Of a stretch of 33,743 bases of DNA, positions 1,594 to 29,554 are shown piece after piece. Location: the NCBI GenBank assembly GCA_964497315.1, contig CAZCCH010000015.1, positions 1-33,743 of the forward strand, read 5' to 3'. Every line of letters begins with the position of its first letter. Positions within the stretch are counted from its first letter, which is position 1. Origin of the DNA: an uncultured Planctomycetia bacterium. Lineage in GTDB: Bacteria; Omnitrophota; Gorgyraeia; Taenaricolales; CAZCCH01. The notes below the pieces were generated by a model, which was not told the DNA's origin, ran no database searches, and saw only the letters and a list, made by a program, of their open reading frames with translations. Position numbers and translations under genes: made by a program.

Positions 1594-2409
1594 GTGACAA
1601 AAGAACCAACTCAACATAAAAAAGTTATGATAGAAGCTGCTTTGAGCGCAGGTAAGCTCATTGCCTCAAGAGTAGGGAAGATAAAAAGGGTTTCATATAA
1701 GGGCAAGATAAATCTCGTTACTGATGTGGATAGGTCTGCAGAAGAACTTATTAAACGCAAACTCAAGGCTAATTTTTCAGATTATCAGATACTTGCAGAG
1801 GAAACTCCTAGCAAGATTTCAGGGTGTGGCTATCGTTGGATTATTGATCCCTTAGATGGCACTACAAATTTTGCCCATAGTTTTCCATTTTTTTGCGTAT
1901 CTATAGCGCTAGAACATAACCGTAGACCCATTATGGGTGTTGTGTATGATCCAATGAGAGGCGAGCTATTTTGGGCTCAAGAAAAAAAAGGTGCGCATTT
2001 AAATGGGAAAAGGATTAAAGTTTCTGATACATCAAGGCTTTCCAGTAGTTTACTTGCTACAGGGTTTGCGTATGAATTTGAAAAATCAAGTAGTACCAAC
2101 ATAGGTAATTTCGTGAAGTTTTTGATGGTTTCGCAAGCCATTAGAAGGGCAGGTTCTGCTGCACTGGATTTATGTTATGTTGCCTGTGGTCGTTTTGATG
2201 GTTTTTGGGAATTGGATTTACACCCTTGGGATACAGCAGCGGGCAGCCTTATTGCGCAAGAGGCCGGTGGAAAACTAACTGCGCTCTCAGGAAGCAAATA
2301 CAGCCATTATAATAAAGAGATTTGTGCCTCAAATGGAAAAATTCACAAACAAATGCTTAAGGTGTTTGATAAAAGAATAGACTCAGTTTTAAGGAAAGTA
2401 GCCCTTTAG
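1594..2409 (+). CDS. suhB: Inositol monophosphatase family protein
   Basis: Contains the WIIDPLDGTTNF and LHPWDTAAG metal-binding signatures of the IMPase/SuhB family. GTG start. Confidence 0.9.
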   Translation: MTKEPTQHKKVMIEAALSAGKLIASRVGKIKRVSYKGKINLVTDVDRSAEELIKRKLKANFSDYQILAEETPSKISGCGYRWIIDPLDGTTNFAHSFPFFCVSIALEHNRRPIMGVVYDPMRGELFWAQEKKGAHLNGKRIKVSDTSRLSSSLLATGFAYEFEKSSSTNIGNFVKFLMVSQAIRRAGSAALDLCYVACGRFDGFWELDLHPWDTAAGSLIAQEAGGKLTALSGSKYSHYNKEICASNGKIHKQMLKVFDKRIDSVLRKVAL

Positions 2410-7089: not shown

Positions 7090-7929
7090 ATGAAAAGAAT
7101 TGCAGGGTTTGTTTTTTTAGCTATGTTTTTGATATTAGCACTAGGAGAGGCTACCTATTCAAATTATTCTTTCGGTCTATCTGATAAAAAAGAAGTTGAA
7201 ATAGGCCAAAGGGCAGATAAACAAGTAAGGCGTAAGTTTGGTGGGACATACAAAGATAAAGAACTACAAAAATACGTAGAGACAGTAGGGCTTAAACTGG
7301 TTTCTGTTTGCGAAAGACCAAATCTTTATTATCACTTTGTAATATTGAATAATAAAGAGCTTAATGCCATGGCGGTTCCAGGTGGATATGTCTATGTTAC
7401 TAAGGGTATGCTTAGAGTATTGCAGAACGAAGCCCAGCTTGCAGCAGTCTTAGGCCATGAAATCGCTCATATTGCACGAAGGCACGGTGCAGAAAAAATA
7501 GATCAGGATATGACAATGAATCTTTTATTTATGATAGCCGGTATCGTTGCCTCAAGGAGTTCCGAAAAGACTGCCAAGACTGCTACAAGGATTATGCGGG
7601 GGGTGAGGACAGCCTATAATTTTGCTGCCTTAGGTTATGGGCGGCAGCATGAGTTTGAGGCGGATTGGAAAGGCACCGAATATGCCTATAGGGTTGGTTA
7701 TGACCCACAAGGAGCTGTACAGGTACTAAATATCTTACAAGAGGAAGAGAAGAAAAACCCTACTTTGATGTTGGATTTCTTGCGCTCTCATCCAAAGACT
7801 ACTGAACGAATAGATAAAGTAAGACAGCTTATGTTTAACTTACAACTTGATCCAAGATATAGCAGGGTAAAGGGTAAATTTTATCCTGAGAGATACTTAA
7901 AAAAAATAGCCCCTCTTTATAGGGAATAA
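7090..7929 (+). CDS. M48-family zinc metallopeptidase (exported)
   Basis: Signal peptide, [13 protein letters not shown] (HExxH) and a downstream [10 protein letters not shown] third-ligand region typical of M48/BepA-like peptidases. Confidence 0.88.
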
Positions 7930-12234: not shown

Positions 12235-14562
12235 ATGCGAAACCTACAAAACAGACAAAATAAGACATTTATCTTAAAACCTCCTGGGACGTATAAAACT
12301 AAACGCAAGGAGCGTCTAATTAAACCTACCAAACGAAAACCATCCATAAAGAAAAAAATCACTGTAATATTTCTTCTTGTATCAATAGCATTATGCTCTG
12401 ATTTATTTGCAGAAAGGCCAAGCTATGCAAATCAGCGCCGACCTAAAATTGGATTAGTCTTAGGTGGCGGTGGTGCTAGGGGTGCTGCACATGTAGGGGT
12501 ATTAAGGGTTTTAGAAGAAAATAGAGTACCGATAGATTATGTTGTAGGTACTAGCATGGGTTCTATAGTAGGTGGTTTGTATGCATCGGGCGTTTCCGTA
12601 GAAGAGCTAGGGGAGATATTTGAATCTATTGACTGGAAAGGCCTCTTTACAGATAGGCCATCACGCAAAGATTTGCCTTTTCGTCATAAGCAAGACAGAA
12701 GAAAACTAATTGATTTTGAAATGGGTTTTAATAAAGGGAAATTGTCTATGCCTAAAGGTATTATTGCAGGTCAGAAGCTAGAATTTATTTTAAAGTCAAA
12801 AACCCTGCATGTTACAGGCGTTGAAGATTTTAATCAACTTTCAATTCCTTATAGGGCCGTAGCCGCTGATATTGAAACAGGCCAAAAGGTTGTTTTAGAT
12901 AGAGGCAATCTTGCTGAGGCGATAAGGGCCAGCATGTCAGTACCAGGTGTGTTTTCTCCTGTTGAGATAGATAATCATATATTAGTAGATGGCGGGATTG
13001 TGGATAATTTACCTGTGGATGTAGTGCGGGATATGGGTGCTGATATCGTTATCGCGGTTGATGTAGGTACAAAGCTCACTAAGCGCGAACAGCTAAAATC
13101 CGCCCTAGATATCTCCATGCAGGTAATAAGTATTTTAACCTTACAGAATGTTAATGAGCAAATTTCTAAGCTTACCAAAAAAGACTTATTAATTACACCC
13201 GAGCTAGGTGATACCTCTTCTTCGGATTTCCATAATGCTCCAGAGATTGTTAAGATTGGAGAGGAATCGGCACGTAATTTTACAAAACAACTAGAGAGAT
13301 ATTCTGTTTCAGATGAGGAGTATCAAATCTTTTTAACAAAACAAAGAAAAAAAGAATTAAAATCAATAAAGATTGATTTTATGGAGGTTACTTCTACGGG
13401 AGGGGCGGCACCTCAAAGGATACAGGCAAAGGTAAAGACAAAGTCAAATACAGAATTAGACCTTGATGTCCTTCAGGAGGATTTAACACGCATATATGCA
13501 ATGGGGGAGTTTGAAAAAGCAGATTTTAAAATTCTTGAAAAACAAGACAAGACAGGTCTTTTAATTAATACTACGGAAAAATCCTGGGGTCCTAACTATT
13601 TACGTTTTGGGCTAAATATCACAGACGATTTTGAAGGTGATAGTTATTATAATTTTCTTACGGAATATACCCGCACACAAGTTAACGCACTTGGTGCTGA
13701 ATGGAAGACTGAGGCCCAGATAGGCAGAACGCGCAAGGTGCTCACTCAATTTTATCAGCCGTTGGATTATGCAGACCGTTTCTTTATTGTACCTAGTATC
13801 GAATACAGCCGTAGCGTTTCAGATATATTTGAGGGTGATACCCGCACAGCGCAATACAAATTAGCCTACTTGCAAGGAGGTCTTGACGCTGGTATAAATA
13901 TAGGGACTTGCGCATTGGGTAAAATAGGAATTGTAAGGGGTAATACGGAGGCAGGTCCACTTGTAGGTGGTGAGAGCTTGCCGGAATTTAATATTGATAC
14001 AGCTGCATTAACAAGTGAGGTTATATTTGATCAAATAGATGATTCAAATTTTCCTAAATATGGAATAACATCTGATGCTTATCTTTTTCTATCGCAAAGA
14101 GGACTCGGCGCTGATGAAAGTTATAAAAAGTTACAATTCCAAGCAATTAAGGCAACTACCTTTGGTGGTAGACATACCTTCCTTGCAGATATAGAAGGTG
14201 GGGCAAACCTAGGAAAAGAAATACCATTTTATGATGAATTTACAATAGGTGGTTTTTTATCCTTGTCTGGCTATAGAAAAGGCCAATTAAGAGGGCAGTA
14301 TTTTGGTTTAGGGAGGCTTGTATATTATTATAAGGTTGCTAATGCGTCTTCCGGGTTGGCAGATGCTATTTATATTGGTGGTTCTGCTGAGAGTGGAAAT
14401 GTATGGGATAAGAGCAATGAGATTGAAATTGGCAATTTACTCCATGGTGGTAGTGTGTTTTTAGGTGTTGACAATATCTTTGGCCCATTGTATTTAGGGT
14501 ATGGCCTTGCTGAAGATAGTGAAGAGGGAAGGTTTTATCTATTTTTAGGTCAAACATTTTAA
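12235..14562 (+). CDS. Patatin-like phospholipase fused to a POTRA/Omp85-type beta-barrel (PlpD/type Vd autotransporter-like)
   Basis: GLVLGGGGARGAAHVGVL oxyanion loop, GTSMGS lipase serine and DGGIVDN catalytic Asp. The C-terminal ~300 aa are beta-strand-rich and end GQTF (aromatic terminus), as in surface-antigen/BamA-type barrels. Confidence 0.88.
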   Translation: MRNLQNRQNKTFILKPPGTYKTKRKERLIKPTKRKPSIKKKITVIFLLVSIALCSDLFAERPSYANQRRPKIGLVLGGGGARGAAHVGVLRVLEENRVPIDYVVGTSMGSIVGGLYASGVSVEELGEIFESIDWKGLFTDRPSRKDLPFRHKQDRRKLIDFEMGFNKGKLSMPKGIIAGQKLEFILKSKTLHVTGVEDFNQLSIPYRAVAADIETGQKVVLDRGNLAEAIRASMSVPGVFSPVEIDNHILVDGGIVDNLPVDVVRDMGADIVIAVDVGTKLTKREQLKSALDISMQVISILTLQNVNEQISKLTKKDLLITPELGDTSSSDFHNAPEIVKIGEESARNFTKQLERYSVSDEEYQIFLTKQRKKELKSIKIDFMEVTSTGGAAPQRIQAKVKTKSNTELDLDVLQEDLTRIYAMGEFEKADFKILEKQDKTGLLINTTEKSWGPNYLRFGLNITDDFEGDSYYNFLTEYTRTQVNALGAEWKTEAQIGRTRKVLTQFYQPLDYADRFFIVPSIEYSRSVSDIFEGDTRTAQYKLAYLQGGLDAGINIGTCALGKIGIVRGNTEAGPLVGGESLPEFNIDTAALTSEVIFDQIDDSNFPKYGITSDAYLFLSQRGLGADESYKKLQFQAIKATTFGGRHTFLADIEGGANLGKEIPFYDEFTIGGFLSLSGYRKGQLRGQYFGLGRLVYYYKVANASSGLADAIYIGGSAESGNVWDKSNEIEIGNLLHGGSVFLGVDNIFGPLYLGYGLAEDSEEGRFYLFLGQTF

Positions 14563-15489: not shown

Positions 15490-16407
15490 ATGGATGGAAG
15501 AATGAAACCACATATTTTTAGCGATAAGGAAAAAATAATTAAAATCCTTGAGGCTACTGGAGTTTCGCGTTCTGAACTTGCCAGGCGCCTTGGGGTGACC
15601 TATAAGACTGTATATAGATGGTTGAATGAAGGAAGGATGCCACATCCGGTCCAATCTAGGGAAATTGAGCAGTTATTTAAAGAGCATATAGATTTAAGAA
15701 ATACTGTTTTTATATTAGCCAAAAAGGTAAAAAACCCTATAGAAATATTAGAGAATAATGAAGGGATACGAGATAGGTTTTTGGTGGAGATGACCTACCA
15801 TTCTAATGCTATAGAAGGTAGTCGCATGAGCAAAAAAGAAACAGAAATGGCCATTAAAGGCAAAAAGATAAAAGATAAAGAGCTATATGAAATCTTCGAG
15901 GTTGTAAACCACAAAAATGCCATGGAGTTTGCATTAGATAACATTAAGCCAAATTTCAAAATTGATGAGAATTACATTTTGAAGCTACATAGTATAGTGA
16001 TGTATAATTTTAATAATAAGCTACCGGGTAAATATAGGACAGGACCTGTAAATTTAATAGGTGCAGATGTGAAGTTGGCTTCAGCACAAGATGTTCCTCT
16101 AAAAATGGGCAAGTTAATCAAGTCTATTAATGATTATAGAGATGATCCAATAGTTAAGATTGCCAAAGATCACTATGAATTTGAAGTGACACATCCTTTC
16201 TTTGATGGAAACGGTAGGGTTGGAAGGCTTATTATAATGACGCAACTTTTAAGTAAAGGGTTTGCTCCTGCTATTATACGGGTTGAAGATAGATATAAAT
16301 ACTATTTTGGACTGGGAAGGGCTGATTTCGGAGATTATAATAATATCACACAGGTAGTTTGCGATGGTATTATAAAGGGATATGAGCTATTAAGCGGTGA
16401 AAAATAA
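15490..16407 (+). CDS. fic: Fic-domain protein with N-terminal HTH (class II, auto-inhibited)
   Basis: Fic active-site motif HPFFDGNGRVGR (16192-16227). N-terminal inhibitory motif SNAIEG ([ST]xxxE[GN], 15802-15819). HTH segment VSRSELARRLGVTYKTVYRWL. Confidence 0.9.
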   Translation: MDGRMKPHIFSDKEKIIKILEATGVSRSELARRLGVTYKTVYRWLNEGRMPHPVQSREIEQLFKEHIDLRNTVFILAKKVKNPIEILENNEGIRDRFLVEMTYHSNAIEGSRMSKKETEMAIKGKKIKDKELYEIFEVVNHKNAMEFALDNIKPNFKIDENYILKLHSIVMYNFNNKLPGKYRTGPVNLIGADVKLASAQDVPLKMGKLIKSINDYRDDPIVKIAKDHYEFEVTHPFFDGNGRVGRLIIMTQLLSKGFAPAIIRVEDRYKYYFGLGRADFGDYNNITQVVCDGIIKGYELLSGEK

Positions 16408-18363: not shown

Positions 18364-18762
18364 ATGAATACCCTTCCAGATAAGATAATAGCGTTTTTGA
18401 TAGCACCTGTTGCATCGTTAGGCTTTATGATAATTTTGTTACGCGCTATATTTCAACCCGCATTATCAGATTTTGGTGAGAAAATACTAGATGTTGTTTC
18501 ATTAGTTGCTGTTTTGGCTATAGCTACAGTTGGTTGCTGGTTTATGTTTAGGATGACGGGTAATAGTGCCTTTGTGAAGCTTGTTTTGCCGCTAATAGTC
18601 CTTATAGTTCTTTTTGTTGGGTTAAAAAGTCCTTTACAGAGCCTCTATCATAGAAAATACGGTAAACCCACCTCAGAAAACTTCTGGCTTTGCCGCAAAT
18701 GCGGTGTGAATAACGAGAACGTATATTTAGAATGCCAGCGTTGTCATTCTGCAAAGCCATAA
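18364..18762 (+). CDS. Hypothetical membrane protein with C-terminal zinc ribbon
   Basis: Three TM helices followed by WLCRKCGVNNENVYLECQRCHS (a RanBP2-like CxxC...CxxC). Confidence 0.5.
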   Translation: MNTLPDKIIAFLIAPVASLGFMIILLRAIFQPALSDFGEKILDVVSLVAVLAIATVGCWFMFRMTGNSAFVKLVLPLIVLIVLFVGLKSPLQSLYHRKYGKPTSENFWLCRKCGVNNENVYLECQRCHSAKP

Positions 18763-18900
18763 TACTTTTATTTATAATGAGTTATATAATATAGTTAGCA
18801 AAACAAAAAGTAAGATTTTTACCCTTGCTTTTTGCCAATATTATGGTATACTTATATATTGATATAGTAAAATAAAAGCTAATTTTGGTAATATAGCCGT

Positions 18901-18987
18901 CCTCGACAAAGGTAAACTCGACCAAAAAGAGGTGGGGTTCGCAAAGCTGCGGGTCTAATTTTAAATAGATAGCCGGGCTGTCGAAGG
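18901..18987 (+). ncRNA. Candidate GEMM-I-like cyclic-dinucleotide riboswitch aptamer in the giant-gene leader
   Basis: Hand alignment to the V. cholerae Vc2 aptamer recalled from memory: GACAAAGG / UCGCAAAGCUGCGGGUCUAA / AUAGAUAGCCGGGCUGUCGAAGG versus GGCAAACC / ACGCAAAGCCUCCGGCCUAA / GUAGGUAGCGGGGUUACCGAUGG. A closing helix forms between CCTCGAC (18901-07) and GTCGAAGG (18980-87). Not verified with a covariance model. Confidence 0.5.
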
Positions 18988-19011
18988 AAACTATTTCGGC
19001 AGTCTTTTTTT
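18976..19011 (+). terminator. Intrinsic terminator / expression platform overlapping the 3' arm of the aptamer
   Basis: GGCTGTCGAA (18976-85) pairs with TTCGGCAGTC (18995-19004) around a 9-nt loop, followed by seven T. It lies 23 nt upstream of the giant-ORF ATG. Confidence 0.65.
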
Positions 19012-19033
19012 ATCTAAAAAATAGACTATTATT

Positions 19034-22000
19034 ATGAAACTATCAAACTCTAATATCCACAAAATTATATCAATAGCACTCCTTGTGACGTTTATGATGT
19101 CACTGATAGGGCCGGAGCTTGCCTTAGCTTCTTCTGAAACCCTTAGACCCCATGTTACATCAAGAAAAAAACCTCTTCTAAAAGAGATGATTGCAAGGTT
19201 TACTGAGTTGCAACGTCCTTCAGTAGCATCTAGTGCAGAAGACTTTAGAAAAGATGAAGTGCGCATAGTTAGAGAAATGACTGAAGCTGGACAGCTTTAT
19301 TTTCGCCATGAACCAGAAAAACCAAGTGCAATATACTATATACCATTTTTGCGATATAGAGCAAGGCTTACACGTTGTAGGGGTGTAGCTGATTATACCA
19401 GTGCTGTGTTGAATGAGAAAGATAGAAGGTTTTCTACATTTAAGAGTGAGCGCGATGGTTTTGAGCGTTGGTTTAGAACTTCCCAGGAAGGTTTTCCATC
19501 GGCAGCATTGTACGACATTGATGTTCATCCTCAAGACTTAAATGATGCCATTGCAGCACTCATAGAGCAGAAGACCAAAGAAAAGGACAATACCATTACT
19601 GTCAGGGCCTTCGGTTCTGGTTTACCGGCCTTACTTTTACCTGGAGATCCAGCTACACTTCTAGCAGGAGATGTTGAAATAGAAACTATTTTAAAGTTTA
19701 TATTATCAGGTCTAAGGCATACCAGGAATAAAGCAAAATGGACTGTGGTAGTTTATGTATATGATAAAAAGACAGCTTATTTAGGGCAACTGGAAAAGGT
19801 TCTTTTGGAAAAATTAGAAAACTCACCAATGCCATTTAATATTGTATTAAATCTTAGATATGGTGATATAGCAGATAGAGAGCAATACCCATATATGTTT
19901 GAAGAACAAAGTGACATTAATGTTTGCCGTAATATCACTCAAAGTGGTGAGAGTTTTTCTAAAGGAGATAGTATTTTTCATGGGCAATTAGTTAATAGCC
20001 TGTCACCTCATGGGTTTATTATACATGGTGCGCGTAGAAGGGGAGATAGGATTATATTAGCTTCTGATAGAGATGCTCTTAAGAGGTTAAGTGGCGATTT
20101 TCTGGATAGTAATTCTTCAGAAGATGAAGCTACTAGTAGGTTTTCAGAAATAGGTGCAATAGGTCACTTGGAAGAGGAAAGAAAAACAGAAGATCTTATT
20201 GCTGCATTGACTGCCTTTGATATTCCTTTTATACCCACAGAAAGCAATTGTGAATTTACAAGAATTTCCGCAGGTCATTCAAACCTTACGTATAATATTA
20301 AGCATAATGGCAAAAATAGGCATATTCTTCAACAAATGAGCACAATTTATGATGCAAATGCCCTTAATGCTAATCTGAACTTATTAGAACAGGCTCAAGA
20401 TGCATGGCTTAAGGAAGGCGCAGAAGATGAATACTGGCAGCCCGTTCATTATGTTAATGTCAAGGGCGCTTCTGATAAGCTATATTGTGATACAGCAGGC
20501 AGAATTTGGCGTTTAATGGATTATATTCCAGGAGAGGTTTTTGGAAAATTTAGTGATGTTCCTCAGAGTGATCGTAGAGAGATTGCCCAATCTCTTGGTA
20601 GGGCAATTGTTGTTTTTCGAAGAATGCTAGAATCAGTTCCTTTAGAAAGCTGGGAAAAGGATATGTCAGGTTTTCATGATCCACAATACTTTTATGCTTA
20701 TCTTCATTCTATTTGGCTGGGTCAGGAGGTGCCATTGAATTTTACTGATGGATCATCACATATGGTAGTTAGAGATCCTAGCGTAACAAGTGAATATTCA
20801 GAAAGAATAAATCTCTTAAAGAGAAAGATTGAAGATAGGAGACATATCTTAACTAGCTTAGATGAACTTGGCCAGGTTGTTTCACATGGAGATTTAAAGA
20901 TTGATAACCTATTCTTCCGAAAACACAAAGGCCGCTGGAAGTGCATATCTATTGCTGATTTAGATACGATACAACCTAGAAACGTCCTTACTGATCTTGG
21001 TGATGCACTGCGTTCTGCCGGCAACCCAGCTGGGTCAGAACCGAGAGCAATAGATGATGTAACAATAGATGTTGATGTGGTCACAAATATAATAAATGGA
21101 TACCTAGAAGCCACAGCAGGGTTTTATGATCACACAGAGGCAGAGCGCTTGAGACCACATACTATTGAGGCATTTAAACTTCTTCTGTATGGGCAGTCTA
21201 TGTGGTATTTAGCAGATGCACTTACTAATAGCGCATACTTTAATATAGGTGCAGAGAGAGCGCTATATAAGGCAGAGGTGCAGATGAGGGCATTGGAGCA
21301 GTTGGAAGAGTTAAGTCTAATTAAAGATGGCCCATTTGCTGATTTTGTCAAACCTGATGCCAGTAGGTTTGGGGAAAGGACTGCCGAAGAACGAATTGCT
21401 GCGCTGCGGGAAGATTTGGTGTATTATGAAGCAGCCGCGACAGCGTCTTCAGCACCTGATCAGGATTTTCCAGATGATATTTGTGATGTAGGTACAGGCG
21501 AAGCCCACCTGATGAATGAAGTCCACATTGCAGCTGATTCTGATGAGCGCCCTGAAAGAATAATTAGCGCATACACCGCTGGTCCTTGCCGGGCATATGT
21601 TATTAAAGGTAGAGTAAATGATGAGACAAGATTGTTTCTACGACATAGAGCTGCGGTAGAGGGCATACTTGATGATTTAAGAGAAGATATAGCCGCTTTA
21701 GAGAGAGCTGGCATGCAAGATAGAGAGGTTGTTTTTAAGCTTGATTTAAAGACGCAAGCCGGCCTGGAGGTCGTGAGGCTTGGATGGGTTTCTCCAGAAG
21801 AACTGAGGGAAAAAATTAAGGAAATATGCGGGCCTCGAATCTATACAGAAGAAGGCATTTTCCCACATGAAATTACTGATGTAATTGCAACCCAGGAAGG
21901 AGTAGTTATTTATTGCCCATATAATTCTAATGCCTCCAAGATTATCTTATGGCCAGAAAGCAAGGAAGGTGTATTCATGGATGCTGTATTGCCCAATGCA

Positions 22001-25000
22001 GAAGTCGTAGAGGATGAGGCATTTTCTGCTCAAAGCAGGTTTGGGGAAATGGCTGTTGATGCACTCAAGGGGAACATAAAGAGAGCGGTGTCTGTATTTA
22101 GGGATACGGCTATTGTAAAAAGTCCACAGTTAATAGAGGAAGACAAAAACAGAGTTTGGGTTATTAACAATATCTTTGAAGATAGATTCCTTCTAGATAG
22201 CGTAGTTTTAAAAGATCCAGACCCTAAACATGAAGAATATTTTTATGCTTCAAGAGAAGGGCTTGATATGTATGAGGCCCATTTTGAGAGTGACTATCCT
22301 CGCGTTGAAATAGCCCAAACAGTGATAATCGATAATCCGAAGGAAAATGATCTAGTTGGTACAAAAAGGGCATCACAGTGCCTTCCACTACTATTTGCTA
22401 ATATTCCTGATAACAAGCCCAACATGATAGGTTCTTCTCATATATTCACTTCGACAGACCCGACATTTTCATCCTTGGGTGATAAACTTCTTGACGCTGG
22501 ATATGAAAACCTAATTGTTGTAATTCCTCGTCCGAAAAAGCTTGGACGAACCGTAGCTCCATTCGCATTAAGAACATCTCAGTATGAGGAGGTGATAGCT
22601 AATATGCGAGCTAAAGGAATTACAGTATACGAGGTACCTTATCAAGACGTTTCAATAAGTGCTGCCGCAACAGCAGATGGTTTTGCGATATTCATAGAAA
22701 AATTCGTTGACCCCACAACAAAAAGGACAAAAGACATTGAAGAATTTGTTCTTCTTGAACCTATAAAAACATGGCAAGAATTCTCAAGTAGGTTTGGGGA
22801 GGTTGCTATTATTGAAGGTAATGCTGCACCGGAAGTTCTTCCGGCAACAGAGAATAGGATAGAGCTTGCGTTGAATATGCCTTCTGAAAGGGCTACGCAA
22901 ACAGGAACTGCCTGTATTAGACCCACGAAGGAAAGGGGATTTGCTGATGTATGGAGCCGCAGGGATTTTATGAAAGCCGGTGCTTTTGCTACGACTGTAG
23001 CAACTGTTTTTGGCAGTTTACCGAAGACCGGAGTTGCTGCTACGCCAGATGCTATTAAAGTCAAGGCAAAGGAGCTTTGTACACAATATTTAAAAGATGT
23101 TTGCGATGAGAAGATAACACTTGGACTAGATAATAGTTTAGGAACCTGGCGTGAAGTTCTCAAGGACAGGGAAGAATACGCCGACTTACTCAAGCCCGAT
23201 AATAATTATGCATTGCTTACTGCGTTTGTTTTTGACACGTTGTTTCCTGCGCTAGAGGAAGCTGCAAGCCGAACACGTGTCAGTGCCCATAACGCATCTA
23301 TAAATATAGAATTAGCCTTAATGAATCTCTTGGATAAAAAAGATGAAAAGGTCGAGGCATTTTTACGTCATACCTTAGCCAGGACCACTGACTCCTTGGT
23401 TAGAACAAGACGAATCCAGAATAAGGTAGAACGCGATAGACGAATTGGTATTGCACTGCAAAGACTGGAGAGCGCCTCTGCTTACATAGGGCCAGAGATT
23501 TCAGATAAGCTGGTTAGTATAGTCAAATTACACGATAGTTTAACGCAGCTTGGTCTGGAGCAAAAGGAAGAGATAGAAAGAGTATCCATGGAGATCAATA
23601 GTTTGATAATAGACCTAAATAAAATTCTAATTCCGCTTGGCTTATACTGCAGGGTTTCAATGAATGTAAGTCTGGGTGATGACAAAGAGCATATCTACAT
23701 CAAGTCGTTTAAAATAGAAAAAACCCGTTTATATAAAGCAACTGACGGCAAAGTTGTTAAGGTCTATATTGTAAAAGGGATAGATAACATAGCTATAACA
23801 AATGTCTTTGGTTTTCGCAGACTGGAAACAGACTATGCTGTAGTAATTTTAGATAATATAGAATCCAAAGCGAGAGACATAGAGGAAGTCCTAAAACATG
23901 GAAAATCTGATGCCCATAAGGATATAGAGAGCAGGCTGACTGCAATTGGGAAAGCAAGATTAGCAGACCTAAGGGTTTTACTTGTTGAGCTGGCAAAAAA
24001 GGAATTTAGTGGTTTGACCAGACAGCAAATAATGAATAAGATTCAAGTTTTAATCGAGACCCACGAGATAAGACATGTATTAGATAGGGGTAACTTTACA
24101 AGGGAAGAGCGCGATAAAAAAGAAGGTTCGGCTTTTATGGCAGAATTGATTCTGGCAGAATTGATTACAGGTACAGCTACATATTATAGTGTATTAAAAT
24201 GGGCTGAACATGTATTCAGAGGAGGAGAGCATGATTATGCCGCAAGGATGGTATTTGAAGGATTGATGAAAAAAGCAAAAGAGAAGGGATATGTAAATGC
24301 ATCCGTAAACCTGAAACATGTTAGCTTTAGAGAGTTGATAAAGACAGTAGAGACATTGCGCAGGCTAAGTAAGGGTGAAATTGCAGGTCTGGCAAGAGAG
24401 TCCTATAAAGAAATATTTGGTTTTGAATTTATAGATGCCTTGCCTGTCATTCAGCCTCCTGGTCGCTTTACCGAGCCAAAAAAGACAGCAACGTGTGAAA
24501 TAGCAATTAGAGGGAGAATGCATATTATACCCTCAGACTTGCTTGCCTATGAGCTATCAAACCTTTATAACGCAGTTAGGGGTAAGATTAATTTTACATT
24601 TAAGAAGGAGCTAGGAGACGATAGAGTTCTTGAAATGACTAATCCCGGGACAATAACTAATATTCTTAGCTTTGGACTGGGGCCTGGGGATATTCTAGAA
24701 GTTAGCGTGGAAGAGGACCTACCACGAGATGTGCAGGAAGAGGCATTGAATTACATTGAGGCTTTGTTTAATAGCTACCATATACTACAAGCAACTCAAT
24801 TGGCGCAGATGCATGGTGCTGAGCAGGCACGGATGGCTTTAGGTGGAACACCCTATGTTGATCTTGCCTCAGCAGAGCAGTATGGATTGGAGATAGTGCG
24901 TTCAGATCTATCTAGCAGTCTTTGGCCTGCATTAAGAAGACTAATAAGCATGTTGAAGCGTGATGTTGAGATTTCTCGTTTTACAGAAAGGGGAGATGAA

Positions 25001-28000
25001 ATACCCACTTCACCAGTCGATCCTGCAAGGTTTAGGGAAGATAGTAGGCTCATAGATGAGCGGGCAAGGGATATGCTGAAGGTGCTGTGTGAAAGCAGGC
25101 GCAGCCAGCCAACCAACACCAAAGCACGAAGGGCATTGGTGCGTTTAGAACACCTCGTGGATTCCAGATGGTCGTATGGTGAACAGTGGAGCGAAGTTAT
25201 CGATACATTGCGCGAAGCCGGACTCATCACCTCAGATACGGCAGGGTGGCTCGGCAGTTTGGATGATGAAGTTGTGCGCAGAACCATGTTCTATGTGACT
25301 GTGCGTTATCTTGACATAATGGAGCATGAAGTTTTATTTCACGGAACCTCACTGCATAACATAGACAGTATCAAGAAACATGGTCTGCACCCTGAGCATG
25401 TACCCCCGGGCAAAGAAGAACTTCAAAGGGTATTTGGCATAGTAGGCAAGGCGCTCGGAGAAGATCGCGCAATGGAGATTACAGAAGGTCAATTAAGTTT
25501 TGAATATGATCTAAGCCTTGCTAATTTTTACTTTGCTATCCTAGGCCCTGAGATGTTGCGAAGAGCGATAGGGGATTTACAAGAAATAAAGAAGCTAGGT
25601 TTTCCTGAAATTGATGAAGCAGATAGAAAATTTATAGAATATTTTCTTGAGCACTGGAATGATGGGTATCTTTCTTCAAACCAGCCATGCCTTCTGGCCG
25701 TACCGTTTAAGACAATCGTACAGTTTATGGATTTAGAGCAAGACGCTTACCAAAGGGATCGGACTAGGTTTCTGAAAAGGCCGCACGAATTTTTTAATGA
25801 TGTTATATTGCTTTACCTGTTTCCTTGGGAAACCTGGGTGGGGGAGGGTACATTGTTACCATTCCGCCTTCCAGCGCTTGATAAAATTGAAACAGCAATG
25901 CACGAACAAATGGCCGTTACCTTCCATGACGTGCATACATATTCCAGACCTAACTATGATCTGGGTGATATTTATGTTGTTACTGGTAAAAGAGATGCCC
26001 TCAATCTAGTACCGCTAAAACAAGTAGAAATAGATGAGCTTGAGAGAACCGCTGTTGTCCTCAGAGAAGTAAATCAAGAATGTCAAGAAAAACAAGGAGA
26101 AGTTTTCAATCGTAGCTTTTCTTCCCAGGAAGCACTTGATTTTTGCGCCGAGCTTCACAGCATTGCCCGGGAAGCCATTGCCAAGTCAAATTATGAGAGA
26201 ACCGATGGGTTATCAGGTGCTCGCTTTTCTGAGCAAGTTGAGTTTGTGGAGGATAAACTGGTCAGGGAACCAATAGAGGATGAAAATCTAACCTTGGACC
26301 AAGTGGAACAAATTGAAAGAGACAGACAGCAGATTGAAGCAGAATTGACTCGGCACTACGGGGATGCCGAGGCGTTTTTTGGAGAAGGACCACGTGATGG
26401 GATAAGAATTATTGCAACCACTGATGAAGAAGGCGAATTGATAGCAACTAGCCCCATTTATTATATAGCCCAAGGGGTAGCAATAAATGAGACCAGGCAA
26501 GAGGTATTGCTGAATTATCTTAATACGACTAGAGCGGGGATAGCAGAAGAAGGTTCGCGATATACGGTTTTTCATGAGATGGGTCACTGGGCTAATGAAA
26601 GTAGAGGTATTTCTAGTATAGTGCGGGAATTGATAGGTCCACAGATGGAGGAGATAGCGGCTTCGCATATTGAGAGGCATCCGGATGAATTGGGATTTTA
26701 CCTTGACTTGTATAATTCAAAGCTTAGAGAAGGTGAGATTCCTGTGGATAGGCTGCAAGAGTTACTGAAAGGCTGTTTAGTCGTCAAAGGCCTTACGCTT
26801 TTCGAGGATTGCTTGGTTGACAGGCAGTTATTAGAGTTAGCTCGCGCAGGAGATCTCGAAGGACTTGACAGAGAATTAATTGGTACAAGGAAAATACTTT
26901 TAGGCGATAAGCTAAAACAGCCAGATCTTTGTTGTCTCGCCATACTTAGATACAGGCTGCTTGAGGAAGTATATTCTCCAGATGATAGGACCAAGGTAGA
27001 TATTTTCCCGGATGACTTCAATCCAGAAAACTTTGGAATAAACGCAGAAATGATGAAGCAGATAGATGATGATGCGCGAGCGATGGCTGTGGCAATCAGG
27101 GGTGCGGAGCGCATGATAGCTAAATACGCGCCAGGAAAAATTGCGCCTCCAGGAGATTTGAGGGATTTAAAAGGCAGGCTGAAGTCATCTGTTGGAGATT
27201 TTATGCGACCATTGAAGAAATATCTTACCATTCCTGCGCTAATTTCTTATTTCAAGCTTAATCATACCCGAGTAGATCCCACGCGTTTCACCGAGGGTAC
27301 GGGTTCACTTAGTGCGGAGGGAAATTTGCCCGGCGATCAAACACTAGGTACTAGTGATTATTCCCCTGCCCGGTTTGTGGAAGGGGATGCCATTGCGCAA
27401 TGGCCTATTTCTATTGACGAGGCATTATTAAGAAGTGGTGAGTCTGCACGAGCTATTGCTGTAGAACCTGACTATGTTCCACCTTATGGAGTTTTAGCTC
27501 CTGGAGCTATTAATATTTCTGATTATCTCGCACTTGGCATGCTTGCTGCTTCAGGGATATCAAGTGAGCCGCAAGGGCAGGATGGGAAATTGAGCCGCAG
27601 GACGTTTCTTAAAGCTGCAGCCGCAGGAGCAGGCGTGGCAATTGGCAGCGCAGTAGTTCACAAGGTTCTAAAAAGCGATGATATAACACCGCGCATTTTA
27701 GATGATGCAGCCGATGAAAGATTAAGAAATGCTGGTAAGGCGATAAGTGCTAAATTCATGCATGTCTATGAAGAATACAAGGACAAAAATCCCGCCGAAA
27801 CAAAGCTGGTACGTGCACTTTTTAGAAAAATAAATGACCACAAGACAGAAAAGGAGATCATGCACCATCCTGAGCTTAAACACAAAAAAGATAACGTAGA
27901 CGTACTAATGGGTATAGGCGAACCTGCCGATGATAATGGTGAATCCCCTATCTATCTTTCATATAGCATACTGGGCCAACCCGATGAGATATTATGGGCA

Positions 28001-29113
28001 AAAATGGTCCACGAAGGATGGCATGCATATAATGAAATCCTCAAGAAGGCCAGTGGTGCAGCGGAGGCTATACGGCATGCACAAGATGAGATGCTTGCTA
28101 ATATAACCGAATGGGTTGAAAATCCCCAAAATCGCGATTCCATTAAAAGATATTTTAGCATTTGGGTAAATGAAGAGGAAATTGCCAATAGCTTGGAAAG
28201 AGCAGTTTTTGTTAGAGAAATAGGCGGTTCAGACAATGAGGCTATCGAAAGATTTGTGCAAAAAGCTATACAGCAAAATCCCAGGGCTCAGGCAGATACG
28301 GGCTCAGGCAGCAAAGAGAGAAAAGAGGCCTATGCGAGACATCTGAGAAGGTATGTAAGAGATCGAATACTGAGATATTATCGAATTCCCTCGTTACATG
28401 GTAGATTGCGATATATACTTAGTAGCTATTATTCACATGTAAAACCTGCTGTGTACATCGGGTTATTTCTAACAGAATTTTATGAAGGACGAGCTGATCA
28501 TCGAACTAGGACAACGAGCCCAGGCAGAAAGTTCTTCATAGGGCCAGATAGAATCGAACTAAATATAAGATCTCATGGAGCTAGTGGGCAGCAAAGGCTT
28601 ATTCTTACGCCTAAAGAGAATTTTTTAGAATGGGCATCGAACTGGGCAAATTCTGAGGAATATAAAAGATTGTTTGTGAAACCAGAAGGCCTTACGAAAA
28701 TGCGCGGTTCCCGCTTTTCCGAAGCCTCCCAAGCCATATTTGGCAAAATTGAGCAACCCACAGGCATAATAATGAAAGCAGATTTTGCTACTAAAATCTT
28801 TCCAGTTTTGCCAGAGTTAGCAGTCCACTTTGGCCAAAAGGTAACAATTGCTGTAGTGGGCCCTTCACAGCTAAAGGAGAGAATAACCAAAGTAAATGCA
28901 GTCTTGCCACATGATGTATCTATTATACTATGCGATACCATTGATGAAGCAGCCAAGGAGTTGTCTGAGAGAGGTATAGGCCTTATCAGATTACTCACCA
29001 GAAAAACAATAAAAGACCTTCCTTTGGTTCGTGAAACCCTCCTTATTACAGAGAAGACCCTACAGCTAATAGATGAGTTGAGATCCCGCAAAGAAATAGC
29101 TGGTGGGGCATAA
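19034..29113 (+). CDS. Giant (3,359-aa) multi-module secreted/membrane protein of unknown function
   Basis: Uninterrupted 10,080-nt ORF. N-terminal Sec-type signal (aa 1-32, ALA|SS). Internal kinase-like, HPr-like and HExxH segments, plus two internal twin-arginine signal-like segments. See findings. Confidence 0.9.
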   Translation: MKLSNSNIHKIISIALLVTFMMSLIGPELALASSETLRPHVTSRKKPLLKEMIARFTELQRPSVASSAEDFRKDEVRIVREMTEAGQLYFRHEPEKPSAIYYIPFLRYRARLTRCRGVADYTSAVLNEKDRRFSTFKSERDGFERWFRTSQEGFPSAALYDIDVHPQDLNDAIAALIEQKTKEKDNTITVRAFGSGLPALLLPGDPATLLAGDVEIETILKFILSGLRHTRNKAKWTVVVYVYDKKTAYLGQLEKVLLEKLENSPMPFNIVLNLRYGDIADREQYPYMFEEQSDINVCRNITQSGESFSKGDSIFHGQLVNSLSPHGFIIHGARRRGDRIILASDRDALKRLSGDFLDSNSSEDEATSRFSEIGAIGHLEEERKTEDLIAALTAFDIPFIPTESNCEFTRISAGHSNLTYNIKHNGKNRHILQQMSTIYDANALNANLNLLEQAQDAWLKEGAEDEYWQPVHYVNVKGASDKLYCDTAGRIWRLMDYIPGEVFGKFSDVPQSDRREIAQSLGRAIVVFRRMLESVPLESWEKDMSGFHDPQYFYAYLHSIWLGQEVPLNFTDGSSHMVVRDPSVTSEYSERINLLKRKIEDRRHILTSLDELGQVVSHGDLKIDNLFFRKHKGRWKCISIADLDTIQPRNVLTDLGDALRSAGNPAGSEPRAIDDVTIDVDVVTNIINGYLEATAGFYDHTEAERLRPHTIEAFKLLLYGQSMWYLADALTNSAYFNIGAERALYKAEVQMRALEQLEELSLIKDGPFADFVKPDASRFGERTAEERIAALREDLVYYEAAATASSAPDQDFPDDICDVGTGEAHLMNEVHIAADSDERPERIISAYTAGPCRAYVIKGRVNDETRLFLRHRAAVEGILDDLREDIAALERAGMQDREVVFKLDLKTQAGLEVVRLGWVSPEELREKIKEICGPRIYTEEGIFPHEITDVIATQEGVVIYCPYNSNASKIILWPESKEGVFMDAVLPNAEVVEDEAFSAQSRFGEMAVDALKGNIKRAVSVFRDTAIVKSPQLIEEDKNRVWVINNIFEDRFLLDSVVLKDPDPKHEEYFYASREGLDMYEAHFESDYPRVEIAQTVIIDNPKENDLVGTKRASQCLPLLFANIPDNKPNMIGSSHIFTSTDPTFSSLGDKLLDAGYENLIVVIPRPKKLGRTVAPFALRTSQYEEVIANMRAKGITVYEVPYQDVSISAAATADGFAIFIEKFVDPTTKRTKDIEEFVLLEPIKTWQEFSSRFGEVAIIEGNAAPEVLPATENRIELALNMPSERATQTGTACIRPTKERGFADVWSRRDFMKAGAFATTVATVFGSLPKTGVAATPDAIKVKAKELCTQYLKDVCDEKITLGLDNSLGTWREVLKDREEYADLLKPDNNYALLTAFVFDTLFPALEEAASRTRVSAHNASINIELALMNLLDKKDEKVEAFLRHTLARTTDSLVRTRRIQNKVERDRRIGIALQRLESASAYIGPEISDKLVSIVKLHDSLTQLGLEQKEEIERVSMEINSLIIDLNKILIPLGLYCRVSMNVSLGDDKEHIYIKSFKIEKTRLYKATDGKVVKVYIVKGIDNIAITNVFGFRRLETDYAVVILDNIESKARDIEEVLKHGKSDAHKDIESRLTAIGKARLADLRVLLVELAKKEFSGLTRQQIMNKIQVLIETHEIRHVLDRGNFTREERDKKEGSAFMAELILAELITGTATYYSVLKWAEHVFRGGEHDYAARMVFEGLMKKAKEKGYVNASVNLKHVSFRELIKTVETLRRLSKGEIAGLARESYKEIFGFEFIDALPVIQPPGRFTEPKKTATCEIAIRGRMHIIPSDLLAYELSNLYNAVRGKINFTFKKELGDDRVLEMTNPGTITNILSFGLGPGDILEVSVEEDLPRDVQEEALNYIEALFNSYHILQATQLAQMHGAEQARMALGGTPYVDLASAEQYGLEIVRSDLSSSLWPALRRLISMLKRDVEISRFTERGDEIPTSPVDPARFREDSRLIDERARDMLKVLCESRRSQPTNTKARRALVRLEHLVDSRWSYGEQWSEVIDTLREAGLITSDTAGWLGSLDDEVVRRTMFYVTVRYLDIMEHEVLFHGTSLHNIDSIKKHGLHPEHVPPGKEELQRVFGIVGKALGEDRAMEITEGQLSFEYDLSLANFYFAILGPEMLRRAIGDLQEIKKLGFPEIDEADRKFIEYFLEHWNDGYLSSNQPCLLAVPFKTIVQFMDLEQDAYQRDRTRFLKRPHEFFNDVILLYLFPWETWVGEGTLLPFRLPALDKIETAMHEQMAVTFHDVHTYSRPNYDLGDIYVVTGKRDALNLVPLKQVEIDELERTAVVLREVNQECQEKQGEVFNRSFSSQEALDFCAELHSIAREAIAKSNYERTDGLSGARFSEQVEFVEDKLVREPIEDENLTLDQVEQIERDRQQIEAELTRHYGDAEAFFGEGPRDGIRIIATTDEEGELIATSPIYYIAQGVAINETRQEVLLNYLNTTRAGIAEEGSRYTVFHEMGHWANESRGISSIVRELIGPQMEEIAASHIERHPDELGFYLDLYNSKLREGEIPVDRLQELLKGCLVVKGLTLFEDCLVDRQLLELARAGDLEGLDRELIGTRKILLGDKLKQPDLCCLAILRYRLLEEVYSPDDRTKVDIFPDDFNPENFGINAEMMKQIDDDARAMAVAIRGAERMIAKYAPGKIAPPGDLRDLKGRLKSSVGDFMRPLKKYLTIPALISYFKLNHTRVDPTRFTEGTGSLSAEGNLPGDQTLGTSDYSPARFVEGDAIAQWPISIDEALLRSGESARAIAVEPDYVPPYGVLAPGAINISDYLALGMLAASGISSEPQGQDGKLSRRTFLKAAAAGAGVAIGSAVVHKVLKSDDITPRILDDAADERLRNAGKAISAKFMHVYEEYKDKNPAETKLVRALFRKINDHKTEKEIMHHPELKHKKDNVDVLMGIGEPADDNGESPIYLSYSILGQPDEILWAKMVHEGWHAYNEILKKASGAAEAIRHAQDEMLANITEWVENPQNRDSIKRYFSIWVNEEEIANSLERAVFVREIGGSDNEAIERFVQKAIQQNPRAQADTGSGSKERKEAYARHLRRYVRDRILRYYRIPSLHGRLRYILSSYYSHVKPAVYIGLFLTEFYEGRADHRTRTTSPGRKFFIGPDRIELNIRSHGASGQQRLILTPKENFLEWASNWANSEEYKRLFVKPEGLTKMRGSRFSEASQAIFGKIEQPTGIIMKADFATKIFPVLPELAVHFGQKVTIAVVGPSQLKERITKVNAVLPHDVSIILCDTIDEAAKELSERGIGLIRLLTRKTIKDLPLVRETLLITEKTLQLIDELRSRKEIAGGA

Positions 29114-29165
29114 TAAAGACAAAGTAAAATCCCCAAAGAAAAATAATTTATTAAAAGAAAAGCCC

Positions 29166-29194
29166 TTGACAGAAGGGAGTTTCTGGTATATACT
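29166..29194 (+). promoter_or_regulatory. Sigma-70-type promoter for the DUF134 gene
   Basis: Consensus TTGACA (29166-71) with TGgTATATACT (29184-94) giving a 15-17-nt spacer. A perfect 12-bp palindrome GAGCATATGCTC (29201-12) lies just downstream. Confidence 0.5.
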
Positions 29195-29254
29195 ATTAAC
29201 GAGCATATGCTCATAATAAATAGGGGGTTTATAGAGAGAGTAGTTGGAGGAGGC

Positions 29255-29554
29255 ATGAAACCCAAAGGAAGACCCAGGAAGATACGGTATATAAAAGGAG
29301 AGCCTAAAATAGCTCAATTTAGCCCTAGAGGAAGGCCTGGAAGGCCGGATGAAGTTGAGCTTACAATAGATCAATATGAGGCTATAAGGCTTGCAGATTT
29401 TAGGAATATGAGCCATAAGCAGGCTGGCAAGATGATGGGAATATCTAGACAAACCTTTGAAAGGATTTTAAAAGAGGCCCGCAAAAGGCTTGCTGAGGGT
29501 GTCATAGTTGGTAAGATTATACGGTTTCAAGGAGGTTGTTTTAAAGTAGGATAG
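29255..29554 (+). CDS. DUF134/UPF0251 family DNA-binding protein
   Basis: MKPKGRPRKIRYI...F.P.G......V.LTIDQYEAIRLADF.NMSHKQAGKMMGISRQTFERILKEARKRLAEG is the characteristic DUF134 pattern with a sigma-70 region-4-like HTH. ATG 29255 is preceded by GGAGGAGG, and the track start at 29207 is less likely. Confidence 0.85.
   Translation: MKPKGRPRKIRYIKGEPKIAQFSPRGRPGRPDEVELTIDQYEAIRLADFRNMSHKQAGKMMGISRQTFERILKEARKRLAEGVIVGKIIRFQGGCFKVG

Follow-up and report, generated by a model that had tools for sequence, protein, structure and literature searches.

Several described systems provide parallels for the giant, modular open reading frame (ORF) considered here, which occupies positions 19034..29113 of the forward strand of a 33,743-nucleotide (nt) stretch of DNA (contig CAZCCH010000015.1 of assembly GCA_964497315.1; hereafter the window, whose numbering is used throughout) from an uncultured bacterium of the Omnitrophota, and which encodes a 3,359-residue (aa) protein studded with copies of a short RFxE-type motif. 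In polymorphic toxins and in the gingipains RgpA/Kgp, a conserved N-terminal trafficking part is followed by variable C-terminal modules, and peptidases present in cis are thought or known to release these modules; in the Porphyromonas gingipain precursors, the cuts fall at Arg or Lys where domains meet. Polymorphic toxin and pre-toxin metallopeptidase architectures were reportedly laid out by Zhang, Aravind et al. in 2012. The MARTX toxins are giant secreted proteins whose exchangeable effector modules are freed by cuts in the inter-domain linkers, and which combine glycine-rich RTX repeats, an inositol hexakisphosphate (InsP6)-activated cysteine protease (C80) that cuts after Leu, and type I secretion (PMC6315884, PMC3153235). 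In the P97/P102 adhesins of Mycoplasma hyopneumoniae, an endoproteolytic site of the form S/T-X-F|X-D/E has been experimentally mapped in large surface proteins (Bogema et al.; PMC3322551). In Clostridioides difficile, PPEP-1 (Zmp1) is found with the adhesins CD2831 and CD3246, under cyclic di-GMP (c-di-GMP) riboswitches (PMC6366702). The Omnitrophota themselves, thought to be mostly ultra-small predators or parasites, possess very large, poorly annotated ORFs (PMC10066038), among which “giant gene” classes (the Archaeovorin and Dockerin types) of more than 20-30 kb have been defined with many transmembrane helices and with C39/S8 peptidase, SecA-like, glycolytic or dockerin domains (West-Roberts et al.). 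Giant proteins of this phylum are suspected to be cleaved, and the lack of “information about cleavage points” is said to block their structural analysis (bioRxiv 10.1101/2023.11.21.568195); whether they persist as single chains or as cut pieces is explicitly an open question in the giant-gene study.

The motif in our protein is non-random, is selected at the level of the protein, is conserved in two relatives (P0003 and P0010) and lies at module borders with disorder-prone flanks. The first-pass annotation of the window, prepared from the sequence alone, had listed 12 RFxE copies with their positions, all of which a regular-expression scan of the ORF recovers in place (all on the forward strand, as are the other features of the giant gene described below): ARFTE (copy 1, aa 54-58, 19193..19207), SRFSE (copy 2, aa 368-372, 20135..20149), SRFGE three times (copy 3, aa 777-781, 21362..21376; copy 4, aa 1001-1005, 22034..22048; copy 5, aa 1252-1256, 22787..22801), GRFTE (copy 6, aa 1810-1814, 24461..24475), SRFTE (copy 7, aa 1981-1985, 24974..24988), ARFRE (copy 8, aa 1998-2002, 25025..25039), ARFSE (copy 9, aa 2396-2400, 26219..26233), TRFTE (copy 10, aa 2750-2754, 27281..27295), ARFVE (copy 11, aa 2779-2783, 27368..27382) and SRFSE (copy 12, aa 3226-3230, 28709..28723). 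Each of the 12 is preceded by a small residue (S, A, G or T), as had been observed at the outset, and the rough initial estimate of about one chance RFxE agrees with the 0.89 copies expected from composition; with the small residue included, the expectation falls to 0.22. None of 20,000 residue shuffles, the check originally suggested, reached 12 copies, the highest count being eight, and the Poisson probability is 2.3e-10. Further, RF.E is the strongest outlier among all XY.Z patterns in the giant protein, the runner-up (P = 1e-5) being five orders of magnitude weaker, and after allowing for ~24,000 patterns its corrected P in this protein alone is ~5e-6. The motif is absent from every other window ORF of at least 100 aa, as the first-pass annotation had remarked, and its statement that the flanks are unrelated is borne out by the 13 inter-copy segments, which are devoid of mutual similarity or internal repeats. 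Across the 12 copies, Arg is encoded by AGG six times, CGC three times, CGT twice and CGG once, Glu by GAA seven times and GAG five times, and the Phe codons vary too. Since the codons thus differ between copies and the flanking DNA is unrelated, the motif has been selected as a peptide and not as a DNA repeat. A literature search on “RFxE” returned irrelevant matches only.

To identify relatives, we ran an exhaustive HMMER search with aa 1800-2999 of the giant protein as the sole query against 1.84 billion representatives. It returned five proteins, namely a fragment of the giant itself, P0002, P0003, P0004 and P0005, of which P0002 proved to be the N-terminal part of the 1,126-aa protein P0010. 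Two of these relatives carry the motif, P0003 and P0010, both from related Omnitrophota metagenome contigs: P0003 (1,706 aa) comes from the same metagenome as the giant, and P0010 was recovered from five related samples, and the backbone genes of its genome share 67-82% identity with their counterparts in the window. P0003 has eight copies (AHFAE, ARFAE, ARFAE, SRFSE, SRFAE, TRFAE, ARFAE and ERFTE), against 0.5 expected for [RH]F.E (P = 6e-8), and an unbiased scan of this protein again ranks RF.E first. P0010 has four (SHFAE, SRFGE, SRFAE and SRFAE) against ~0.2 expected. The three proteins together hold 24 copies against ~2.0 expected, ~18 of them, by our count, in non-homologous contexts, and yield the consensus [SA]-[RH]-F-[AGST]-E. 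The His variant is confined to the first copy, after the leader, in P0003 and P0010; the relaxed variants R[LIMV].E, KF.E and RF.D do not occur at all in the three proteins. P0004 and P0005 share with the giant only a PARP-like module and are without the motif. P0005 (2,809 aa) has an N-terminal hydrophobic leader (FKLITIVIVCLFAVNNFSIAAE, residues ~40-65) that recalls the family leader, as well as a large internal duplication, and may be a distant relative with a different junction rule or with none. No relatives of the giant were recovered from the viral contigs or, with the whole protein as query, from the genome contigs; the 80 loci reached in the latter via the neighboring Dus gene showed neither synteny nor an RFxE-rich ORF. 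Metagenome contigs scanned with alignments of the leader and of one module gave none among the matches listed.

Comparison of the three proteins, which the first-pass annotation had suggested as a check of positional conservation, shows that the motif is kept at homologous junctions and that blocks of similarity stop exactly at its Glu. Between the giant and P0003, similarity is confined to the leader and to one block (giant 2381-2754, P0003 760-1155), which has the motif at both sides in both proteins and the motif Glu as its last residue; copy 9 of the giant is homologous to the SRFAE at residue 775 of P0003, and the similarity stops at copy 10 (residue 1155 of P0003). The giant and P0010 likewise share the leader and a block (giant 2741-3230, P0010 430-909) that ends exactly at the Glu of copy 12. 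Past this block the giant and P0010 have unrelated C-terminal modules, that of P0010 instead sharing 41% identity with its counterpart in P0003. The matches of P0004 and P0005 cover giant aa 2002-2393, that is, all of module 9 (2003-2400) and nothing beyond. A further indication comes from the kinase module, where the NahK-like kinase structure extrapolates to ~aa 365-776 of the giant, compared with a motif-defined module at 373-781. In the homologous linkers of giant 2741-2790 and P0010 430-465, the surroundings have diverged with insertions and deletions and the pentapeptide has been retained: copy 11 is homologous to the SRFAE at P0010 residue 459, while copy 10 aligns with a degenerate ERLAE, a decayed member of a doublet. 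Such doublets within single linkers occur twice in the giant (copies 7/8 and 10/11). The first copy directly follows the leader in all three proteins (residues 40-58; copy 1 of the giant aligns with the AHFAE of P0003), there are as many copies as modules after the leader, and no copy stands behind the last module in any of them. This order of leader, motif, module, motif and module is the arrangement expected of a separator, and modules have been shuffled between a shared promoter and signal-peptide leader on one side and variable C-termini on the other.

Additional evidence comes from what lies next to the motif. The only two strongly hydrophobic internal segments of P0003 start 7 and 13 residues past motif copies, with basic residues before each (ARFAE-GNKNKKGLMGPAVMRTALIACVLGVGAAAMVYG and ARFAE-DEKPVVETTWHRKWRTSVLLTIISVIPLAISYFI); they resemble Sec signals or anchors of the N-terminal kind, and only a cut at the motif would bring them close to an N-terminus. 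Twin-arginine translocation (Tat) signals follow motif copies in the giant and P0010 at 52-78 residues, with a conserved stretch between. Those of the giant fit the pattern S/T-R-R-x-F-L-K with a moderately hydrophobic h-region (SRRDFMK at aa 1308 and SRRTFLK at aa 2854), and score 23.9 bits with the Pfam TAT_signal model (cut-off 22.7) and 25.1 bits with TIGR01409 (cut-off 16.7), the latter in two stretches. The first, SRRDFMKAGAFATTVATVFGSLP (22955..23023; TIGR01409, TAT_signal E = 0.07), might be a signal or an anchor and has its RR pair 52 aa past the end of copy 5; the second (27593-27661; Pfam TAT_signal/TIGR01409) belongs to module 12. The RR pairs, at aa 1309 and 2855, follow the Arg of the nearest upstream copy by 56 and 75 residues, in line with the spacing first noted. 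Because these signals are internal and not N-terminal, an export function would require either prior cleavage or use as an anchor. The flanks of the motif are enriched in P, S, G and D. Of the two structural checks suggested earlier, that for disorder gave raised values in the flanks (TOP-IDP z = 3.7, P ~6e-4). That based on the predicted local distance difference test (pLDDT) drew on a low-confidence AlphaFold2 (AF2) model of giant aa 1800-2999, in which four of the six copies coincide with local pLDDT minima in coil.

Taking these findings together, we propose, with moderate confidence, that the giant is a modular polyprotein and that the pentapeptide is a module separator, most likely recognized and cut by a site-specific endopeptidase. 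An endopeptidase site is the simplest explanation for a strict pentapeptide in ~18 non-homologous contexts, for the separator-like order, for the doublets and for the signal-like segments downstream. The first-pass annotation had described a short linear motif at domain boundaries that could serve for cleavage, docking or modification; the linear motif stands, with its unrelated flanks and its conservation in homologues, and among the three roles the comparative data favor a separator or cleavage role, short of proof. In the scheme we envisage, the precursor would consist of a Sec leader followed by unrelated enzyme-like modules (a kinase, a PARP/Tpt1-like module, three HExxH modules, two of them with Tat signals, and several orphan modules), each headed by [SA]-[RH]-F-[AGST]-E, and the endopeptidase would cut it into individual proteins. 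The cutting enzyme could be one of the precursor's own HExxH modules or a trans-acting enzyme encoded elsewhere. Cutting would free the N-termini of the modules with Sec-like (P0003) or Tat (giant, P0010) segments, such that their targeting signals could act independently. By analogy to the M. hyopneumoniae site, the scissile bond might be F|x, with a small P1' and Glu at P2'; a cut after Glu would be equally compatible, except at the copy that is followed by Pro. The leader predicts export, yet the kinase and NAD-dependent modules need a cytoplasm, and hence three compartments come into question: processing might take place before export in the cytoplasm of the producer, at the periplasm or surface, or upon delivery into a target cell. 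A more speculative extension, which we put forward only tentatively, is that a small Omnitrophota clade uses such genes as an “operon in a protein,” in which exchangeable enzyme or effector cassettes, made as a single precursor, are separated by a dedicated endopeptidase at the pentapeptide and each cut unmasks a private signal (Sec-like, Tat or none) that would send the pieces to different compartments. With ATP- and NAD-dependent modules behind an export leader, such sorting might even occur inside a prey or host cell.

How does this arrangement compare to the systems outlined above? In its grammar, the motif is nearly the same as its closest known counterpart, the M. hyopneumoniae site (TYFAE and TTKF|QE there, SRFGE, TRFTE and SRFAE here): F-x-E is present in all 24 copies, and the position at −3 relative to x is S or T in 14, A in eight, G in one and E in one, a strict fit in 14 copies and a relaxed one in the others. 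Both settings involve large multidomain surface or secreted proteins, disorder-prone regions and multiple fragments (predicted in our case), and the protease is unidentified there too. However, the proteins have no sequence homology and belong to Mollicutes and Omnitrophota, respectively; here −2 is always Arg or His, a third of copies have Ala at −3, the Glu never varies and the consensus admits only A, G, S or T at the variable position, whereas the M. hyopneumoniae sites are looser and are not regular module separators, and their cleavage has been demonstrated where ours is proposed. No Pfam or PDB similarity to the P97/P102 adhesins was found. The closest architecture is that of MARTX toxins, which also place unrelated, swappable modules between conserved termini and generate variants by module shuffling; module exchange with breakpoints at the motif is indeed observed in our family. 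The giant differs from them in its Sec leader, its defined pentapeptide and its internal Tat or Sec-like signals; it has no internal repeats of the glycine-rich RTX kind and no RTX or HemolysinCabind match in Pfam at E <= 0.1, no Peptidase_C80 match in Pfam or NCBIfam, and a junction that is not X-Leu. As judged by these comparisons, it is a member of neither the MARTX nor the M. hyopneumoniae adhesin family.

The remaining parallels are looser. Unlike polymorphic toxins and gingipains, the giant has no detectable pre-toxin peptidase, Rhs/YD, haemagglutinin or C25 domain, and unlike in polymorphic toxins, the motif separates many modules instead of a single toxin tip, with no immunity-gene pattern seen. 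The PPEP-1 system of C. difficile resembles ours in that surface proteins stand under a c-di-GMP riboswitch and, there, a short motif is recognized by an HExxH metalloprotease; it differs in its Pro-Pro motif (VNP|PVP), in releasing an adhesin from the wall, in having no multimodule polyprotein and in its lack of homology. We found no 3C/chymotrypsin-like or prohead (T4 gp21-type, L/I-x-E) protease domain that would point to a viral-type polyprotein, and the context is a bacterial chromosome with no relatives in viral contigs. The giant also falls outside the Omnitrophota giant-gene classes, with a 10-kb gene, one strong hydrophobic segment plus two Tat h-regions, and none of the class domains in Pfam.

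Several observations weigh against cleavage as the function of the motif. No protease was identified in Pfam and NCBIfam scans, PDB profile searches or the gene neighborhoods. At least one HExxH module is found in every one of the three proteins, and the giant's own HExxH segments are possible candidates; the claim in the first-pass annotation that it carries three such motifs is correct (aa 1677, 2514 and 2993, with 0.16 expected). No single protease module, though, is common to the giant, P0003 and P0010, and the two types of HExxH module have no detectable relationship (hhalign probability 0.1%). The nearest peptidase family in Pfam is a sub-threshold Tox-MPTase3 (E = 0.18), PDB profile searches with both HExxH modules gave nothing significant, the sole neighboring peptidase (M48, 7090..7929) lies at a distance of 11 kb, and the called genes that surround P0003 and P0010 include none annotated with a peptidase family. 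The RR motifs of the giant lie 52 and 71 residues past the motif with a conserved stretch between, so that the new N-terminus would not be a classical short n-region. One copy has Pro after the Glu (RFTE-P), which would disfavor a cut after Glu. Both AF2 models are poor (mean pLDDT 41 and 34) and too weak to place the copies in linkers, the second being uninformative. The family is tiny: its three members come from two or three uncultured organisms that are closely related, which limits its phylogenetic depth. The cut itself, the scissile bond, the protease and the compartment are elements that we infer from sequence.

With these points in mind, other explanations need to be weighed. A non-proteolytic docking or recognition motif, bound by a chaperone, a secretion or translocation component or a modifying enzyme (perhaps the protein's own kinase or ADP-ribosyltransferase [ART]-like module) while the chain stays intact, would also account for a strictly conserved, protein-level pentapeptide in disorder-prone flanks, and would fit both the absence of a protease in the domain scans and the presence of kinase and ART-like modules in cis. 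We nevertheless hold it to be rather unlikely: the motif offers no conserved modifiable residue, with the Ser at −1 being Ala in eight of the 24 copies, and docking leaves unexplained why the leader has a copy behind it and the last module has none, why signal-like segments begin 7-13 residues past copies, and why doublets (7/8 and 10/11) exist. Linkers normally tolerate sequence drift. Their divergence, with insertions and deletions, between giant 2741-2790 and P0010 430-465 while the five residues were kept speaks against a mere structural hinge or capping element retained for folding or spacing without a partner, to which the constant location at module borders and the flanks rich in P, S, G and D would otherwise be congenial; the want of relaxed variants and the strict identity over ~18 unrelated contexts point instead to a binding pocket, and we judge the hinge improbable.

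That the motif is a side effect of a recombination site in the DNA that shuffles module cassettes between polyprotein genes is suggested by the shuffling itself with its breakpoints at the motif, by module G+C fractions that range from 0.38 to 0.45, and by the different chromosomal positions of the gene in related genomes. It appears very improbable to us, as the 15-nt sites show no conservation at the DNA level (they draw on four Arg codons and both Glu codons, and the flanking DNA is unrelated) and no conserved nucleotide core or inverted repeats were seen at the junctions; a conserved peptide could aid the survival of productive recombinants, but this presupposes a function at the protein level. 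Chance or a compositional artefact deserves mention since the pattern was noticed after the fact; given the corrected P of ~5e-6 in the giant and the independent recurrence of the by then prespecified pattern in P0003 (P = 1e-7) and P0010, we assign it a negligible probability. Of the readings considered, the cut separator remains the one we prefer. In addition, certain candidates were tried and rejected: internal translation starts, as Met follows only one copy; self-cleaving chemistry of the motif, as there is no conserved nucleophile; a prepilin-peptidase site (G|FTLxE), as the spacing is wrong and no hydrophobic helix follows the motif; and a DNA repeat or recombination site as such, on account of the codon differences between copies.

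A separator motif with a precise consensus and 24 mapped instances makes the question of single chain versus cut pieces directly testable, and offers a concrete hypothesis for the cleavage-point gap in at least one Omnitrophota lineage. Should the motif prove to be cut, the oversized Omnitrophota proteins would gain their first cleavage code defined by sequence. For bacterial polyprotein biology this would mean a new protease specificity and a defined junction code, and it would explain how modules come to be swapped among paralogues. It would follow, too, that a cut can switch on internal Sec and Tat signals, and the resemblance to the Mycoplasma S/T-X-F|X-D/E site could then point to a shared protease specificity. 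The link to a c-di-GMP riboswitch (see below) ties the system to surface and attachment lifestyles.

Turning to the anatomy of the giant protein, the leader (aa 1-58, 19034..19207), delimited by hydropathy and leader similarity, comprises a Sec-type signal peptide, a short propeptide and motif copy 1. The signal peptide, KIISIALLVTFMMSLIGPELALA|SS, is by hydropathy the sole strongly hydrophobic stretch of the protein; the leader is common to the giant, P0003 and P0010, with a conserved ALA site. Module 3 (aa 373-781, 20150..21376) is an APH/N-acetylhexosamine-kinase-like kinase that fills the interval between two motif copies, as indicated by matches to Pfam APH (aa 408-672, E = 2e-10) and PDB 4ocu (giant 412-760 aligned to chain residues 48-363 of 379). 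Module 9 (aa 2003-2400, 25040..26233) is weakly PARP/Tpt1-like, with a weak signature at aa 2088-2121 in addition to the matches of P0004 and P0005, and is a putative ADP-ribosyltransferase fold. The first HExxH motif (HEIRH, aa 1677-1681, 24062..24076) is situated in module 6. The second (HEMGH, 26573-26587) belongs to module 10 (aa 2401-2754, 26234..27295), which is 35-39% identical to P0003 aa 779-1155, with the motif on either side of both versions. The third (HEGWH, 28010-28024) belongs to module 12 (aa 2784-3230, 27383..28723), which consists of a conserved 70-aa N-region, the Tat signal and the HExxH part, as defined by profile matches and by its 57-62% identity to P0010 aa 463-909. The C-terminal module 13 (aa 3231-3359, 28724..29110) is unrelated to the C-terminal module common to P0003 and P0010. 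Two labels of the first-pass annotation could not be upheld: the “CheD-like” segments at aa 782-1256 have no Pfam support, and the “HPr-like” segment gives only a sub-threshold PTS-HPr match (E = 0.12, 12.9 bits against a cut-off of 23). Modules 1-2 have a G+C fraction of 0.38 and modules 4 and 7-13 one of 0.42-0.45, versus 0.37 in the rest of the window, and this unevenness is consistent with a mosaic origin of the gene.

Upstream of the giant gene is a sigma-70-like promoter (TTGCCA, a 17-nt spacer and TATATT; 18832..18860, forward strand) that matches the consensus at 10 of 12 positions. It is part of a block found before all three polyprotein genes, window 18787-18859 being 79% identical to the corresponding region of the P0010 contig L085 and 74% to that of the P0003 contig L082. 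Between this promoter and the ATG, the 5' leader of the giant gene contains a c-di-GMP-I riboswitch aptamer (RF01051; 18901..18986, forward strand), with a full-length match (model positions 1-87; 43.5 bits against a gathering score of 35) that ends 48 nt before the ATG. A terminator-like hairpin with a T-run (18975..19015, forward strand), whose 5' arm overlaps the 3' side of the aptamer, is a candidate expression platform and, because of this overlap, probably that of an ON switch; the giant gene is therefore probably switched on by c-di-GMP. Despite the same promoter, no c-di-GMP-I riboswitch is present upstream of P0003 or P0010 (L082 and L085), L082 retaining only a “CTCGACAAAGGCTAA” remnant immediately before its ATG.

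The window is identical to the JGI metagenome contig Ga0117906_1000949, on which the giant ORF receives the same gene call, and is a segment of a bacterial chromosome that encodes EamA, inositol monophosphatase, DUF3187, M48 peptidase, SPFH, Sir2, patatin-Omp85, Fic, acetolactate decarboxylase, DUF134, Dus and cold-shock proteins. The Dus protein shares 66% identity with its counterpart in a Candidatus Omnitrophota metagenome-assembled genome, and its next best matches are also from Omnitrophota. The patatin-like phospholipase fused to an Omp85 barrel (12235..14562, forward strand) is PlpD-like, with a type Vd autotransporter architecture, and a Fic/HTH protein is encoded nearby (15490..16407). 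When L085 6484..8284 is compared with window 18364..29554, a 173-aa ORF and a LAGLIDADG endonuclease ORF are seen to take the place of the giant gene between the 132-aa gene and DUF134, and in this related genome the P0010 gene lies upstream of Fic. From these differing placements, polyprotein genes occupy variable positions in an otherwise syntenic backbone.

The P0010 gene itself has an in-frame TAG (YNKTLK*ASS) in the contigs of two samples (L083 and L084, ~2293..2295) and AAG (Lys) in three (L085, L086 and L087). This is a nonsense polymorphism inside the Tat/HExxH module that divides the gene call into parts of 683 aa and 434 aa. All five of these independently assembled contigs (L083-L087) begin exactly 243 nt upstream of the P0010 gene, which suggests a repeat or hypervariable region just upstream that breaks assemblies. 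Around the P0003 gene, a pilin-like N_methyl gene is found directly upstream, and a group II intron domain match (RF00029; L082 8149..8952) lies between tRNA genes downstream.

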